Below, in pieces: positions 18,001 to 24,000 of a stretch of 38,783 bases of DNA. Position numbers: made by a program. The DNA is from a candidate division WOR-3 bacterium. Lineage in GTDB: Bacteria; Hydrothermota; Hydrothermia; JBDRYB01. The stretch lies in NCBI GenBank assembly GCA_039803205.1, contig JBDRYB010000019.1:1-38783 (forward strand). The letters run 5' to 3'. Every line of letters begins with the position of its first letter. The first letter of the stretch is position 1.

Positions 18001-21000
18001 TCTGTATCTCTGGGCCTCGTAGAAGCTTTGGGCGGCGGCAATGAGAACCTTCGGTGCCTTCGGATGGTTCGGGTTTTTAAGGGCGAACTCAACCCATAGG
18101 TCAGCCGCTCCCTCCTTGTTTCCCTCGTTGAGCGCCTTTGTCGCCTTGGTCAAGAGAGCCTCCGCGGCAACATCCCCTGACTTCGGCTGGTATGTTAGCT
18201 CTGCCCCAGCCTCGTATATTATTGCCTGCATGCGCTTTTTTGCATCCGCGGCAGTTGAGTGATTCGGATACCTCTCAACAAGCATGTCATAGTAAGCCAT
18301 AGCACCGTTGTAGTCCTTCTGGGCTAGAAGGGCAGAGCCAGCAACATAAAGGGCGACCGGCTCATCCTCATCTCCGGGGTATGTTTCCAAGTATCGCTTC
18401 GCGAGCTCAAATGCCTTCAGGTAATCCCCCAGCTCGTAGTAAAACCTACAGGAGAGGAGCGTAGCGTTCTTCGCCTTTGGGTCCTTTGGATAGGCATCTA
18501 TGAACTGGGAGTAGAGGTGAGCGGCTCGTATGGTATCCCCTTCTTCAAGCGCCTTTGTCGCCGAGGCATAAAGGGTTAATGTCGCTATCTCCGGGTTGGA
18601 GACCGTGTAGCCCTCTATTGCCTCAGGGTGAGCTGCGGCTATTGCCTTCATGCGGGTCTCCGCGTCCTCGCGGTATGTTCCTTTGGGATTCTCGCTGACA
18701 TACTGGTCAAGGTATCTGAAGGCATCCCTCCAGTGCTCAAGCGAGAGGTGAACTATGCCGAGGAGGTATTTGAGGTCCTCGGTTCCCGGTCGGCCCGGAT
18801 ACTGGGTCAGCAATCTCTCAAGGTATGGCAGTGCGTCAGCGTAGCGCTCCTTTTTTATCAAGCACTCGGCCGCGAGCCCGAGAGCGTCCGGTATCCTTGG
18901 GTCTCCCGGATAATCCCTTATGAACTCCTGCAGAAAAGTCAGGGCCTCTGTGTATCTTCCATCCCTATATGCGCTCAGGGCTGGGAAGTAGGCGAGAGAG
19001 GCGGCCATCGTGGGATGCGCTCGCATGAAGGCGCTGTCTGCTGTTATGGCTGGCCCGTATTTCACGAATATCTGTTCCATCTTTGCCTGAGCGAGTCCAA
19101 CATACTCGGATTTCGGATACCGGGAGACAACCTCATCGTATTTCTCAAGCGCGCCCTTGAAATCATCCCCATCAAGAAGGAGATCCCCCTCAATTATCAA
19201 GGCCTTTGGCGCGTCCGGCGAGCTCGGGAAGCTCTGTCTGAACCAGGCGAGCTTTTCCCTTGCCTTGTCTGGCTGGCCAGCCTGGATGTAAATTCCCGCG
19301 ACATCAAGCGCTGTTTTCCCTGCCCTCTGGGACCTGGGATACTTCGTCAAAAGCCTCTCCCATATCGCTACTGCATCCCCATACGCCTCCATAGCGAAAG
19401 CCGAAAGCCCTTGGTAATACATCACATCTGGGACAACATCGTCAAACTCCGGATACCCAGTGACAACAGCGGCAAAGCTCCTGTAAGCTCCCTGATAGTC
19501 CCCTGAGTTAAACTGCGCGACCCCTATCCCATAGTAAGCAACCACAAGGAACTTTGGGGAGCCCGTTGCTAGCGTTACCGGCCCGAGTTGATCCCTTGCG
19601 TCCTGATACTTGCCGAGGTGGATATAGCACCAGCCGAGGCCAGCTTTCACTTGTCTCCGCCTGTCCGCGAGTGAGGAAAACTCGTATTCGTCAACGAGCG
19701 CCTTGAATTCCTCAGCCGCGGCCGCATAGTTTCCAGCATAATAAAGGCTCTCCGCCCTCCACGCGAACCGTGATGACATGAAGTCTGTCTTGAAGGGTTT
19801 TACAGCATCGGTTATCTTCAGGTCCGCGGCAACGAGGGCCAACAGGAGCATGGATATATTATAACATTTGCCGGTTCCCAGATTCCAGCTGTCGCATAGC
19901 TCGTGATCCTTCACCCCCCTGGCCCCTAGCCCTGATTGACCCAGTGGTTTATCATTTTGGGCATGAAGGAGAGAACCAGAAGGATAAACAGCCTCATCAA
20001 TCTGGGTGATGTTGACGCAGAACCTGTAGGGAAGCCTCTCTGTCCTTATTGCAACAGAGGAAGGGTGATAAGGAAGGAATGGATAGAGAGGCAGATATGG
20101 GATTTAGGGAAGGAGCCAATAACCGTCAGAACAAAGAGGTATGCTTGCCAGGTCTGCGGTAGGGCCTTCATCCACTAAAGGATAAAGGGCAAGAGCTGGG
20201 GTTTTAATGTAGCGGTTTCACCTGAGGGGAGGGCACCTCCTGGATACACGAAGGACATCCTGTTTTGGCTATCAGATATGCTTGGCTTCATCAGGACGGG
20301 GAAGCATTTGGGTTATTATCCTGAGCTCATCACCAACAATGCGGACGAAAGGGCTATACTACGCACAAAATCAAGGGTAAAGACCATAAGAGGTTTCAGC
20401 TCTGAGCGCGGAGCCTATTCTGCCCTTCTCATCACCCAGGCTTTTGGTGAGGCATTTGAGCGCGGCGTAGGCCTTGATCCCTCACCTTGAGATGGTTTAT
20501 AATTTGCCCCTTAGCGAGAAAGGGAGTTTTATGCCAACGATAAACCAACTGGTGAGGTTCGGCAGGGCTTCTAAGAAGAGAAAGTCTAAGGCGCCTGCGT
20601 TGGCCGCTAATCCCCAGAGGAAAGGGGTCTGCATTAGGGTCTACACTACAACACCAAAGAAGCCCAACTCCGCCCTACGGAAGGTCGCGAAGGTTAGGCT
20701 CTCCAACGGCAAGGAGGTTATCGCCTATATACCTGGAGAAGGCCACAACCTACAGGAGCACTCGGTTGTAATGGTCAGGGGCGGAAGGGTGAAGGACCTT
20801 CCTGGGGTCAAGTATCACATCATAAGAGGAAAGTATGACTCAGCTGGGGTTGATGGAAGGGCAAAGAGCAGATCAAAATACGGAACAAAGAAGCCAAAGA
20901 AGTGAGAGGATATGCGCAGGAAGAGAGCACCAGTAAGAGAGATACCCCCTGATCCGAAGTTCGGATCCTCGGTAGTGGCTAAGTTCATAAATTATATGAT

Positions 21001-24000
21001 GTGGGATGGCCAGAAGGCTTTGGCGCAGAGGATCTTTTACACCGCGATGGAAATGGTGGAGAAGAAGACCGGCGAGCCAGGGCTTGAGGTGTTTCTTAAG
21101 GCCCTGGAGAATGTAAAGCCCGTGCTTGAGGTTAGGCCTCGTAGGGTTGGCGGTGCAACCTACCAGGTTCCAGTTGAAGTGAGGCCGAAGAGACAGCAGT
21201 TCCTCGCGATGAAGTGGATACTCACGGCAGCCAGAGAAAGGCCTGAGAGGACCATGGCGGAGCGGCTCGCTAACGAGCTCATAGACGCTTCACGGAATAC
21301 CGGTAGCGCCATAAAGGTGAAGGAAAACACCCACAAGATGGCAGAAGCTAACAGGGTTTTCGCGCACTTCAGGTGGTAGAATGGTAAGGATAAGGCTGGA
21401 GAGAAAGGGAAAGAGAGGAAGGCCTTTCTACAGGCTGGTGGTAGCGGACAGTCGTTCCCCAACGGGGGGTTATGTTCTAGATATCCTGGGATATTACGAC
21501 CCCATAAGGGAGGGGAATTTCAAGGTGGATTTGGAACGCTTGCAGGAATGGCTTGCTAGGGGGGCACAGATAACGCCCAGAGCAAGGAGTATCGTTAATC
21601 TCGCAAGAAGAAACAGAGAGGTGAATCATGGCTGAACTGAAGGAGCTGATAGAATACATCGCAAAGGCTCTCGTAGATCATCCTGAAAAGGTGGATGTAA
21701 GGGAGCTCGCCGGAGAAAAGAGCGTAATATACGAGCTGAGGGTAGGCGAAGGCGACCTCGGAAAGATCATAGGCAAGGAGGGCCGCACCGCGAGGGCCAT
21801 AAGGACCATAGTGGGCGCGGCCGCCATGAAAAAGGGACGCAGGGCTCAGCTGGAAATAATAGAATAGGGCAAGCCCTTTGTGTCTCTCGCTCGGGTAAGC
21901 CGGCTAGGCTGGCGATTCTGTTACGAGGGGTTGCGGATAGGCTGAGGTATTCTCTTTATATCCCTTTCTGAGGCTTAGCGCGAGTGAGATGAGGATAACC
22001 TTCATAACCCTTTTCCCTGAGCTCATAAGGCCATGGCTGAATTTCGGGCCCCCAAAGGCCGCTATAGAATCCGGTTCCCTTGAGGTCAGGTTCCTCAATC
22101 CAAAGCACTATGCCAGAACCCCGAAGGATACGGACGATTATCCATTTGGAGGAGGGCCGGGCATGGTTCTCAGGCCAGAGCCTCTAATAAGAGCCATCAC
22201 CGATGCTACCGCAGATGAGGGGGGGCTTGTCTTGGCCTCCAGCGCGAGGGGCCGCGTTCTCAACCAATCATGGATAAGGAAGCTCCTGTCCCAGTCCCAT
22301 CTTGTCGTTGTTTGCGGAAGATACAAGGATACCGACGAGAGGGTTCTCAGGTGGGTGGACGAGGAGTTTTCAGTGGGGGACCTTGTGGTCTCAGGCGGCG
22401 AAGGCCCTGGGATAATCCTCCTTGATGCGATAGCGAGGCTCCTGCCCGGCGCTCTCGGTAACCAGGATTCCGCGAGCGATGACTCCTTTGAGAGAGGGGT
22501 TCTGGGATACCCTTCCTATACCAAACCCAGGCAATATCTGGGCCTAGAGGTTCCAGATGTCCTCCTGTCAGGAAATCACGCGAGGATAGAAAGGTGGCGT
22601 AGGCGCCAGGCCTTGCTTTATACTTTGCGTCTGCGTCCAGACCTTCTGGCCTCCAGACTAACGGACAGAGAGGATCTGGCGTTGCTTGAAGAAAAGGAGA
22701 GAGAAATTGGAAGAGCTCATTAGATCCGTTGAATCCTCCTTCCTCCGCCGTGATCTTCCTGAGATAAGGCCAGGGGACACGGTCAGGGTATATGTGAAGG
22801 TAAAGGAGACACGGATAAACCCGAAAACCAAGAAGCCCGAGGAGAAGGTGCGCCTTCAGGCCTATGAGGGCATCGTGATCGCTGAGAGGGGCAAAGGTTC
22901 CGGAAAGAGCATAGTGGTCAGAAAGATCTCCGCTGGTATAGGGGTTGAAAGGATATTTCCCCTCATCTCCCCTTCAGTTGAACGCATAGAAGTTGTGAAG
23001 AGAGCAAAGGTGAGGCGCGCGAAGCTGGGTTACCTGAGAGGCAGGATAGGCAAACACGCGAAGCTAAAGGATAGGCGGCTTTCGGCCGAGGAGATAAGCC
23101 TTCTTTATCCCTCCGCGGAGCCCGGAGAAACCGCTGAGGCACCGAGCGAGGAAACAAGGGCCGAACCGCTGGAATCCGCTGAGACCGAGGAAGGGGAGGC
23201 CTAAAATAGACCCGGTAAAGGCAGGGAGGCGGGCAGAGGAGGAGGCCGCTGAGTTTCTCAGGTCAAAAGGCTATGTAATTGTCGCGAGGAACTTCAAGAT
23301 AAGGGGAGGGGAGGCTGACATAATAGCGTGGGATGGGGATGTTCTCGTGTTCGTTGAGGTAAAGAGCAGCGCTGGCGCGGTGAGCGAACCGCTTGAATCC
23401 CTTGGAGCTCTCAAGCGCAACCGCATGGTCCAGACAGCAGAGCAATTTCTCGCAAGGATGGGGCTTGATGGGGTTCAAGTGAGGTTTGACGCTATATCAG
23501 TTACCCCTGATGGCATAAAGCACTATCCGGATGCTTTCAGGCCATAGATCTCGGTTATTAAAGGAACCCGGCCGGCCGCGCGCTTTATAATGAGAGCATG
23601 AGCCTATTTGACCGGTTAGGGACCCTCGTGGATGCCGCGCACGATGACAAGTGCTCCGAGAAGAGCTTCACCCTCAGGGAGTTCATCCACATGGCGCAGA
23701 CCCCGCGGGGCTCCTGCCCGATACTCAAGGTTGCTATGACAAATGCATGCGAGAATAATTGCTATTACTGCGCTCTCAGACGAGACAGGGATCTGCGCCG
23801 AACCAGACTTACTCCGGACGAGATGGCGAGGGCATTCGTGGAGCTCCACAGAAAGGGGCTAGTTGAGGGGATATTCCTGACATCAGGGGTGAGGGGGGGT
23901 CCCATCCGCTCAATGGACGACATACTCTCCACAGGGGAGCTCCTCAGGAGGAAATACGGGTTCAAGGGATACATGCATCTGAAGATCATGCCCGGAGCGG

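Follow-up and report, generated by a model that had tools for sequence, protein, structure and literature searches.

Losing the signal recognition particle (SRP) does not kill Saccharomyces cerevisiae or Streptococcus mutans, and Escherichia coli survives it thanks to IF2, IF3 or uS3 mutations by which translation initiation becomes slower, as stated in PMC7844537. In the mitochondria of most eukaryotes the bacterial system has gone the same way, Ffh, FtsY and SRP RNA having been lost in most lineages according to PMC8321541. For insect endosymbionts, an account given in PMC4122945 describes Evansia, a relative of Carsonella and Portiera, as keeping ftsY and ffh; of the Sec-pathway genes and lspA named there for Evansia, only secE and lspA are also listed for Portiera. 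The bacteria analysed here are free-living bacteria without detectable SRP: this supposedly universal machine for membrane-protein delivery is undetectable in two whole classes that have normal-sized genomes, respiratory complexes and the other secretion apparatus.

The window analysed is a stretch of 38,783 nucleotides (contig JBDRYB010000019.1) from a candidate division WOR-3 bacterium (assembly GCA_039803205.1, here G000). Neither Ffh nor SRP RNA nor FtsY, the three components of the bacterial SRP pathway, was found in G000 or in either of the two classes. The SRP54 domain (PF00448) reached a top score of only 16.9 bits in G000 with all 26 of its 26 candidates scored; the control was positive in 14/14 named genomes. 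The Met-rich M domain of Ffh, which binds signal sequences and SRP RNA (PF02978), gave zero candidates. Searches for the 4.5S-type SRP RNA (RF00169) returned nothing at E≤10 (150 of 197 candidates scored), and the long-type RNA (RF01854) was detected in none of the 5 genomes tested, G000 among them. With filters switched off, profiles made from sequences of the phylum itself (21 Ffh, 6 FtsY and 6 FlhF) scored at most 11.2, 10.5 and 13.8 bits, respectively, against the 30,133 six-frame ORFs of G000.

The class of the window (class 1) comprises 64 species genomes in 12 families and 20 genera. PF00448 was absent from all 64 at E≤1e-10. At E≤0.01, 17 of the 64 were formally above the 22.7-bit cut-off (top score 30.3 bits), and none of these weak matches reached past position 118 of the 196 in the model. 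Ten weak class-1 matches (17-30 bits, at least six of them above the cut-off) proved not to be SRP GTPases: two were AAA_22, six MeaB and two RadA-like proteins. In total, all 18 weak P-loop matches examined were assigned to other families. PF02978 was found in 0/64 genomes (control positive in 14/14), RF00169 was above cut-off in 0/64, and FlhF was not found in class 1. The initial annotation had reported G000 to be devoid of Ffh, FtsY and SRP RNA, and SRP to be absent from all 64 genomes of the class; both statements are borne out by these searches. Its central reading, that the lineage as a whole really lacks the SRP pathway and that no assembly gap is to blame, has strong support, and the pathway is truly absent from G000 and class 1.

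The initial annotation also credited the other classes of the phylum with the complete set of three SRP parts, and this is refuted by a second SRP-less class (class 2, the class of G265: G250-G271, 22 genomes, 7 families, 11 genera). PF02978 and RF00169 were both found in 0/22 of its genomes, and the sole SRP54-type matches were six FlhF-type proteins in six of the 22 genomes (PF00448, 138-162 bits), FlhF being the flagellar paralogue and third SRP-type GTPase. The SRP pathway itself is truly absent from class 2 as well. The three of these six proteins that were tested are FlhF: their TIGR03499 scores, 182-208 bits, exceed the cut-off of 174, and they stay under the ftsY and ffh cut-offs. The gene sits between flhA and a MinD-like (flhG) gene in the three loci examined, the neighbours having been identified by NCBIfam in one locus (FlhA upstream, MinD-type downstream) and by eye in the other two.

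Outside both SRP-less classes the same markers were readily recovered. PF00448 was present at E≤1e-10 in 182 of 186 phylum genomes, with scores of 230-260 bits in the SRP-positive ones, and PF02978 in 163 of 186. With unchanged filters, RF00169 was found in 59/62 genomes when every third genome outside the two classes was sampled, and in 5/5 SRP-positive relatives in another search. Two single genomes, G084 and G108, had none of the four SRP markers and all five of the other markers searched. PF02881, run on five genomes, gave no match in G084 and G108 and a contig-end fragment in G226, with G083 and G107 serving as positive controls. These data are a hint that G084 and G108 are further SRP losses.

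SRP was lost at least twice independently within the phylum, since the two SRP-less classes are not closest relatives. In an RpoB+RpoC tree (41 genomes, 2525 columns), each SRP-less class formed a clade with a support of 100, and class 2 was nested, also at 100, in a 16-row group with 8 SRP-positive genomes. Forcing the two SRP-less classes together cost 82 log-likelihood units (AU p=0.0002). A tree of 20 ribosomal proteins, built from 22 genomes and 2708 columns under the C20 mixture model, had the same topology with a support of 97, and there the joint grouping was rejected with AU p=0.003 (test under LG+G4). The Ffh tree of 21 SRP-positive genomes followed the species tree and recovered the same 8-genome group at 100, indicating that Ffh was vertically inherited. 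Counting G084 and G108, the number of losses is possibly as high as four.

The interval singled out in the initial annotation is 20531..23204. Canonically, the trmD operon reads (ffh)-rpsP-rimM-trmD-rplS and the str operon rpsL-rpsG-fusA-tuf. The plus strand of the window carries rpsL (S12, 20531..20905; PF00164, 135.6 bits), which has a Shine-Dalgarno-like GGGAG motif ahead of its ATG at 20531, and rpsG (S7, 20912..21379; PF00177, 217.5 bits). One base past the rpsG stop codon begins rpsP (S16, 21381..21635; PF00886, 70.4 bits), followed by a gene for a KhpA-type KH-domain protein (21628..21867; PF13083, 81.3 bits), by trmD (tRNA m1G37 methyltransferase, 21989..22723; PF01746, 141 bits) and by rplS (L19, 22686..23204; PF01245, 127.5 bits over residues 11-129 of 172). 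The C-terminal end of L19 in G000 is an acidic tail some 40 residues long. The order rpsL-rpsG-rpsP-KH-trmD-rplS was thus correctly described in the initial annotation.

Compared with the canonical trmD operon, rpsP, the KH gene, trmD and rplS stand in their usual order with rpsL-rpsG ahead of them, but rimM does not lie between rpsP/KH and trmD in G000. Its usual place, occupied in most class-1 genomes, is a 121-base gap (21868..21988); Pfam identifies as RimM the ORF cluster that relatives carry between KH and trmD, and a profile made from 13 such sequences had no match at E≤1 anywhere in the G000 assembly. The KH gene adjoins rpsP in 40/40 other loci. Compared with the canonical str operon, rpsL-rpsG adjoins rpsP in G000 instead of preceding fusA-tuf. 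This rpsG-rpsP junction is common to G000 and two genomes of the same genus (G024 and G025) only, and neither S12, S7 nor Ffh was found within about 7 kb of rpsP in any of the 40 other loci. The proposal that rpsL-rpsG stands here "instead of ffh" has therefore to be abandoned: among 22 rpsP loci taken from other classes of this phylum, none had ffh nearby, so that the gene order of the window is uninformative on SRP loss, and the junction is unrelated to it.

The insertion machinery of SecY, SecA and YidC is present. SecY and SecA were found in 45/45 and YidC in 42/45 of the genomes searched, all three as single-copy genes with one YidC match per genome, and trigger factor was found in 5/5 SRP-less genomes tested. 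YidC is absent from G000 and present in both other genomes of its genus and in 10 of 12 class-1 representatives. The initial annotation had attributed its absence to an assembly gap, which this distribution confirms; its Sec inventory is likewise confirmed as regards SecY, SecA and trigger factor. The potential clients are numerous: G000 has about 259 ORFs with at least two membrane spans predicted from hydropathy, 161 of them with at least four, and three complex I antiporter-type subunits.

SecY, SecA, the YidC tails and the exit-tunnel ribosomal proteins showed no compensating change, in agreement with what the initial annotation had claimed for SecA, SecY and YidC. The YidC tail past the last span measured approximately 5-12 residues in 6 class-1 sequences, 6-40 in 8 class-2 sequences and 5-35 in 16 others (by eye on printed C-termini), and was short in SRP-less and SRP-positive genomes alike. 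A long, positively charged, ribosome-binding tail of the YidC2/Oxa1 type was not found among these 30 sequences, nor was a second YidC found in any of the genomes searched. The lengths of SecY, uL23, uL29, uL24 and uL22 were equal across all groups, SecA reading-frame lengths overlapped between groups, and the hydrophobicity of the first span of SecY and YidC did not differ. SecY and SecA had no insertion or deletion common to the SRP-less genomes, and one shared substitution among the 760 columns conserved within both classes. The uS3 tryptophan, which we take to be the site mutated in the E. coli suppressor, was kept in 9/10 SRP-less sequences. The genes around yidC included no cluster that the two SRP-less classes share and SRP-positive genomes lack. 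An all-ORF scan of about 1.6 Mb of fetched loci, a weak test limited to DNA around rpsP, rpoBC, secY, yidC and secA, yielded only EF-Tu, rejected as a sampling effect, and one ORF of approximately 124-153 aa with no Pfam match.

Systematic loss from the bins of the DNA carrying the SRP genes is hardly credible as the origin of this pattern. All 86 genomes of the two SRP-less classes are drafts, none of the genomes searched is fully closed, the evidence is one of absence only, and G000 itself is without YidC and rimM. However, three unlinked loci gave 0/86, while 21 genomes representing these classes yielded S16, RpoB, YidC, SecY and SecA in 101 of 105 cases, and universal genes other than SRP were recovered at 93-100% in class-1 genomes. 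The near-closed class-1 members are SRP-less too: G056 is 99% complete in 4 contigs and G057 100% complete in 3. Drafts of similar quality from the rest of the phylum gave the SRP RNA (59/62) and Ffh/FtsY-type matches (182/186), and ffh, ftsY and the RNA gene sit on ordinary, often large contigs in the SRP-positive relatives. It is also very improbable that Ffh, FtsY and SRP RNA are present in both classes and have diverged beyond recognition, a reading left some room by the homology-based nature of the searches and by the genomes in which only 41-53 first-look candidates were scored. The SRP GTPase domain is among the best conserved, as its 230-260 bits in SRP-positive genomes of the phylum illustrate, and even its divergent paralogue FlhF still scores 138-162 bits within class 2, but the phylum's own profiles with filters off did not exceed 13.8 bits in G000 and every weak match examined belonged to another family. 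Moreover, this reading would require three components of no common descent to become unrecognisable, and to do so twice independently.

Our best reading, to which we give slightly better than even credence, is a true recurrent loss of SRP, its role having passed to SecA, YidC and the direct docking of ribosomes. There would be no dedicated SRP replacement, and membrane proteins would reach SecYEG and YidC by routes common to all bacteria: SecA may bind ribosomes and nascent chains, translating ribosomes may dock directly on SecYEG or YidC, and trigger factor may hold the nascent chains. Slow translation and growth could give nascent chains more time to find the membrane, as in E. coli survivors of SRP deletion; slow translation in this lineage is deduced from the single growth rate in one paper, which reports one cultured strain in pure culture with a doubling time of 10 h at 70 °C (PMC12285271). 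As a pure culture exists, SRP-free targeting is testable. A less probable but serious alternative is that SRP was lost and that a dedicated, so far unrecognised factor acts instead, be it protein or RNA, with no relation to Ffh, FtsY or 4.5S RNA. The repeated loss of a "universal" system with no visible adaptation of the known machinery is odd and leaves room for such an unseen factor: SRP has gone at least twice, possibly four times with G084 and G108, in one phylum, and, in the literature searched, natural SRP loss is otherwise found only for organelles and tiny endosymbionts. A further point in its favour is that 1,107 of the 2,083 predicted genes of the cultured strain are given as hypothetical in PMC12285271. 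The factor might even be present phylum-wide, which would explain the repeated loss. Against it, no candidate emerged from the yidC neighbourhoods, which had no shared cluster specific to SRP-less genomes, or, as far as that weak test goes, from the 1.6 Mb locus scan with its EF-Tu and single Pfam-less ORF.

Insect endosymbionts with extremely reduced genomes, Carsonella and Portiera among them, are bacteria that have also lost ffh and ftsY naturally. However, their genomes are tiny and depend on a host, and most of the cell envelope and Sec machinery has gone, while the genomes studied here (0.9-3.3 Mb) retain subunits of respiratory complexes along with SecY, SecA, YidC and trigger factor. 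Mitochondria likewise operate a bacterial-type membrane system minus SRP and have kept a YidC homologue (Oxa1) for co-translational insertion. In contrast to G000, with its approximately 160 predicted proteins of at least four spans, they encode few membrane proteins, and they tether ribosomes through the Oxa1 tail and receptors such as Mba1 and Mdm38, while neither a long YidC tail nor an extension of exit-site ribosomal proteins was seen here. The laboratory strains (S. mutans ffh, ftsY and scRNA mutants, S. cerevisiae SRP mutants and E. coli ffh-deletion suppressors) resemble these bacteria in using SecYEG, SecA and YidC without Ffh, FtsY and SRP RNA. When SRP is absent, S. mutans is probably helped by a second YidC that has a long basic tail, whereas YidC here is single-copy and short-tailed; the uS3 site altered in E. 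coli suppressors is unaltered here in all but one of the ten SRP-less sequences. The laboratory strains are, moreover, engineered, sick and derived from species that are normally SRP-positive, whereas the loss described here is a natural and ancient one that has become fixed in entire classes.

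The signal recognition particle, or SRP, and the receptor for it are routinely counted among the few machines present in every cell. When genome completeness is estimated or phylogenies are built, their genes are used as universal markers. The SRP pathway (Ffh, FtsY and SRP RNA) was not recovered from the genome that carries the window (G000). The best match to the SRP54 GTPase domain (PF00448) reached 16.9 bits (26/26 candidates scored; the control was recovered in 14/14 genomes), there were zero candidates for the Ffh M domain (PF02978), and neither the 4.5S-type SRP RNA (RF00169, none at E<=10) nor the long-type SRP RNA (RF01854) was found. 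Profiles built from the phylum's own 21 Ffh, 6 FtsY and 6 FlhF sequences, searched with filters off against the 30,133 six-frame ORFs of G000, gave best scores of 11.2, 10.5 and 13.8 bits respectively. The absence of SRP from this genome, proposed in the initial annotation, is therefore borne out by the Pfam, Rfam and phylum-own profiles.

The absence had also been claimed for the whole class Hydrothermia, and the 64 genomes analysed (12 families, 20 genera) agree with this: PF00448 at E<=1e-10, PF02978 and RF00169 above the cut-off were each found in 0/64. None of these is a single-contig genome; two of them, G056 and G057, come in 4 and 3 contigs and are 99% and 100% complete, respectively. 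At E<=0.01, 17/64 genomes were formally above the 22.7-bit Pfam cut-off of PF00448 (best 30.3 bits), with matches spanning the P-loop half of the model only. These weak matches were rejected as cryptic SRP GTPases, because those inspected belong to other families. The 8 best in G000 were three ABC ATPases, a Mrp/NUBPL protein, a ParA-type tyrosine kinase, ParA, adenylate kinase and thymidylate kinase, and the 10 checked across the class (17-30 bits, at least 6 of them above the cut-off) were all AAA_22, MeaB or RadA-like.

SRP absence is more than assembly noise. Outside the two SRP-less classes described here, PF00448 was present at E<=1e-10 in 182/186 genomes of the phylum and the M domain in 163/186. 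RF00169 was found in 59/62 genomes of a rest-of-phylum sample (every third genome from G064 to G247) under an identical filter regime. Moreover, five universal genes (S16, RpoB, YidC, SecY and SecA) were recovered 101/105 times in 21 representatives of both SRP-less classes. G000 itself has no YidC; this had been read as a gap, and rightly so, since both other genomes of the genus have the gene. In another genome, G264, rpoB was recovered twice with identical scores (G264:C13:56-3718 and G264:C30:11259-14921), probably from redundant contigs of the assembly.

The statement that the other classes of the phylum have all three SRP parts proved wrong. Phylum-wide tables showed that G250-G271 have no M domain and that most of them also have no PF00448 match at all. 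A class-level search centred on G265 demonstrated that these 22 genomes are exactly one class (7 families, 11 genera), hereafter the second class, and RF00169 was found in 0/22. A single SRP54-type match (138-162 bits) was present in 6/22 genomes. In the three loci inspected, this gene sits between flhA and a MinD-like gene, and its product passes the FlhF model TIGR03499 (182-208 bits vs. a cut-off of 174) while scoring far under the ftsY and ffh cut-offs. SRP-type GTPases are consequently fully detectable in this lineage, and the flagellar paralogue alone remains.

Four single genomes outside both classes also had no PF00448 match. Two of these absences are gaps: SRP RNA was found in G118, and an SRP54_N fragment (PF02881) lies at a contig end in G226. 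In the other two, G084 and G108, PF00448, PF02978, PF02881 and RF00169 were all not found, and all five other markers (S16, RpoB, YidC, SecY and SecA) were present. Each is the sole genome of its own family, and SRP is present in the respective sisters, G083 and G107. As each case consists of one draft genome, G084 and G108 can only tentatively be read as additional, third and fourth losses.

We then asked whether the two classes share one loss. In a RpoB+RpoC tree (41 genomes, 2525 columns, LG+G4, quick search) both SRP-less classes came out as clades, each with support 100, and the second class fell within a 16-row group that includes 8 SRP-positive genomes (support 100). The best tree uniting both classes fell short of it by 82 log-likelihood units (AU p=0.0002). 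An independent marker set of 20 ribosomal proteins (22 genomes, 2708 columns, LG+C20+F+G4) grouped the second class with 7 other genomes (support 97), 6 of them SRP-positive and the seventh G084; the corresponding AU test, under LG+G4, gave p=0.003. The trees are unrooted quick searches and the AU tests were run after the first tree had been seen, with the grouping set in advance by SRP state. The AU tests on both marker sets reject the idea that SRP was lost once, in an ancestor common to both classes. Nor was there support for the second class's SRP-positive relatives having regained SRP by horizontal transfer. In a tree of Ffh from 21 SRP-positive genomes the 8-genome group was recovered at 100 with its inner groups alike (G080 was left out of this reading, as the ORF picked for it, with a branch length of 7.4, was not Ffh). 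The Ffh tree follows the species tree, indicating vertical inheritance of Ffh rather than regain. There were at least two losses of SRP, and its absence is real, recurrent and wider than first reported.

The finding was attached to the interval 20531-23204, an unremarkable series of translation genes that is only a peg for a genome-wide absence. Pfam matches identified, all on the forward strand, rpsL (20531-20905, its ATG preceded by a GGGAG motif), rpsG (20912-21379), rpsP (21381-21635), a KH gene of the KhpA type (21628-21867), trmD (21989-22723) and rplS, encoding L19 (22686-23204). Rfam and tRNA scans revealed no Rfam family or tRNA in the window. At its C-terminus, the L19 of the window has an acidic tail of low complexity, about 40 residues long, in which Glu, Ala, Ser, Pro and Thr are frequent; L19 of relatives has 96-128 residues. 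The 121-base gap at 21868-21988, between the KH gene and trmD, is the usual place of rimM, for which a profile built on 13 RimM sequences of relatives found no match anywhere in the G000 assembly. RimM occupies this place in at least 8/9 other Hydrothermia loci and in five genomes outside the class (G064, G080, G083, G084 and G085), and is absent from it in all six second-class loci with gene order listed.

The initial annotation had described rpsL-rpsG as standing before rpsP in place of ffh. The order was confirmed: rpsL-rpsG is joined straight to rpsP, without fusA-tuf following, and 1 base separates the stop of S7 from the start of S16. As a scar of ffh loss, this order was rejected. In loci of approximately 14 kb around rpsP from 40 genomes (9 Hydrothermia, 9 second class, 22 others), rpsP was followed by the KH gene in 40/40, and S12, S7 or Ffh lay within about 7 kb of rpsP in 0/40. 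In 18/18 SRP-positive genomes, compared by eye, ffh and rpsP were on separate contigs. The junction is genus-specific: rpsL-rpsG-rpsP-KH was contiguous only in two genomes of the same genus (G024 and G025, 80-81% identity), and rpsL-rpsG alone was matched in 3 genomes of the sister family.

Parts of the export machinery are retained. SecY and SecA were each found in 45/45 genomes, YidC in 42/45, and trigger factor in the 5/5 SRP-less genomes tested. Potential membrane clients are numerous: among approximately 2105 ORFs of G000, a simple hydropathy count predicted at least 2 membrane spans in 259 and at least 4 in 161, and three complex I antiporter-type subunits are encoded. The window carries outer-membrane and type IX secretion markers, namely a 1206-residue relative of the PorU-like type IX secretion sortases with a T9SS sorting tail (5646-9266), an 888-residue TPR protein with several matches to BamD and YbgF models (17248-19914) and a weak BamB-like protein (36938-38578), which support a diderm envelope. 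RpoB frames are unusually long in some Hydrothermia genomes (G000:C1:267947-271996, G062 and G035; 1403-1490 residues vs. the 1238-position model) and G000 and G035 show a split of the HMM match into two, a pattern suggestive of insertions specific to the lineage.

How membrane proteins are delivered in these cells may be explained in several ways. Most likely, general routes (SecA, YidC, direct docking of the ribosome and trigger factor) would suffice in slow-growing cells. A dedicated targeting factor in place of SRP, so far unrecognised, is a live alternative. In a broader form, a phylum-wide SRP-independent delivery system, based on a ribosome- or translocon-associated factor unrelated to Ffh and FtsY, would have made SRP redundant and repeatedly discardable, in two classes and perhaps two further families; we regard this as rather unlikely. 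If true, these bacteria would offer a model, natural and open to cultivation, of how cells live without a part that has long been assigned to their universal core. No gene confined to SRP-less genomes emerged from the yidC neighbours or from all ORFs of the fetched loci; as the sample was small, this is a weak negative.

The retained components were compared between groups, and no compensating change was found in them. YidC was single-copy, with no second copy found, and its C-terminal tail was short in SRP-less and SRP-positive genomes alike. SecY has 436-443 residues in both SRP-less classes, like most others, SecA frame lengths overlapped between groups without any change, and there was no length difference in uL23, uL29, uL24 or uL22 and no difference in first-span hydrophobicity of SecY and YidC. 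SecY, SecA and YidC were scanned for changes that the two independently SRP-less classes have in common and that few SRP-positive genomes show. No common insertion or deletion was found in SecY or SecA; in YidC the two classes share a 2-column insertion, within a periplasmic segment that aligns poorly. The 760 columns that are conserved in both classes yielded one common substitution only, at the SecY residue just before the 'LGIMPYISASII' segment (residue 75 in G000, G000:C28:6123-7439; alignment column 215), which we take to be in the plug/TM2 region. This residue is Gly in 9/11 Hydrothermia, 8/9 second-class and 1/19 SRP-positive sequences, and Ala in 15/19 SRP-positive sequences; one such shared site could be explained by chance. 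In uS3, no consistent change was detected at the second Trp of the W-x-S-x-W motif, presumably the residue altered in the E. coli SRP suppressor, and Trp was kept in 9/10 SRP-less sequences. The sole exception in 19 sequences was G263 of the second class (locus L159), in which this N-terminal Trp is Gly.

No paper noting SRP absence in WOR-3 or Hydrothermae was found in full-text literature. According to the sections available of the studies concerned, SRP loss is survivable in yeast and Streptococcus mutans, and E. coli tolerates it through mutations in IF2, IF3 or uS3 that slow translation initiation (PMC7844537). Strain sy37 (NBRC 116057), the lineage's first member in pure culture (a lineage-level assignment that does not imply membership of Hydrothermia), is described in the available part of its report as growing at 70 °C with a doubling time of 10 h, bounded by inner and outer membranes, and carrying a closed 2.39 Mb chromosome that CheckM rates 98.31% complete despite closure; the text makes no mention of SRP, and its Fig. 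S2 includes a 'Sec-SRP' column (PMC12285271). The existence of this cultured strain, whose genome is closed (PMC12285271), makes membrane-protein targeting without SRP testable in nature.

These results indicate that co-translational targeting by SRP is dispensable for a free-living diderm bacterium, a point of relevance to the long-running discussion of why E. coli cannot live without it. Where ffh and ftsY are counted, completeness estimates and marker-gene trees will carry a systematic error in both classes. In the sources as far as available, the natural losses of SRP described are those of mitochondria, most of which have lost the bacterial SRP (PMC8321541), and of minute insect endosymbionts; the only Sec-related genes common to Evansia and Portiera are secE and lspA, not ffh or ftsY (PMC4122945). 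Here, by contrast, the loss extends over 86 species-level genomes of ordinary size, and these SRP-less bacteria have an outer membrane, complex I-type subunits and well over 100 multi-spanning membrane proteins.
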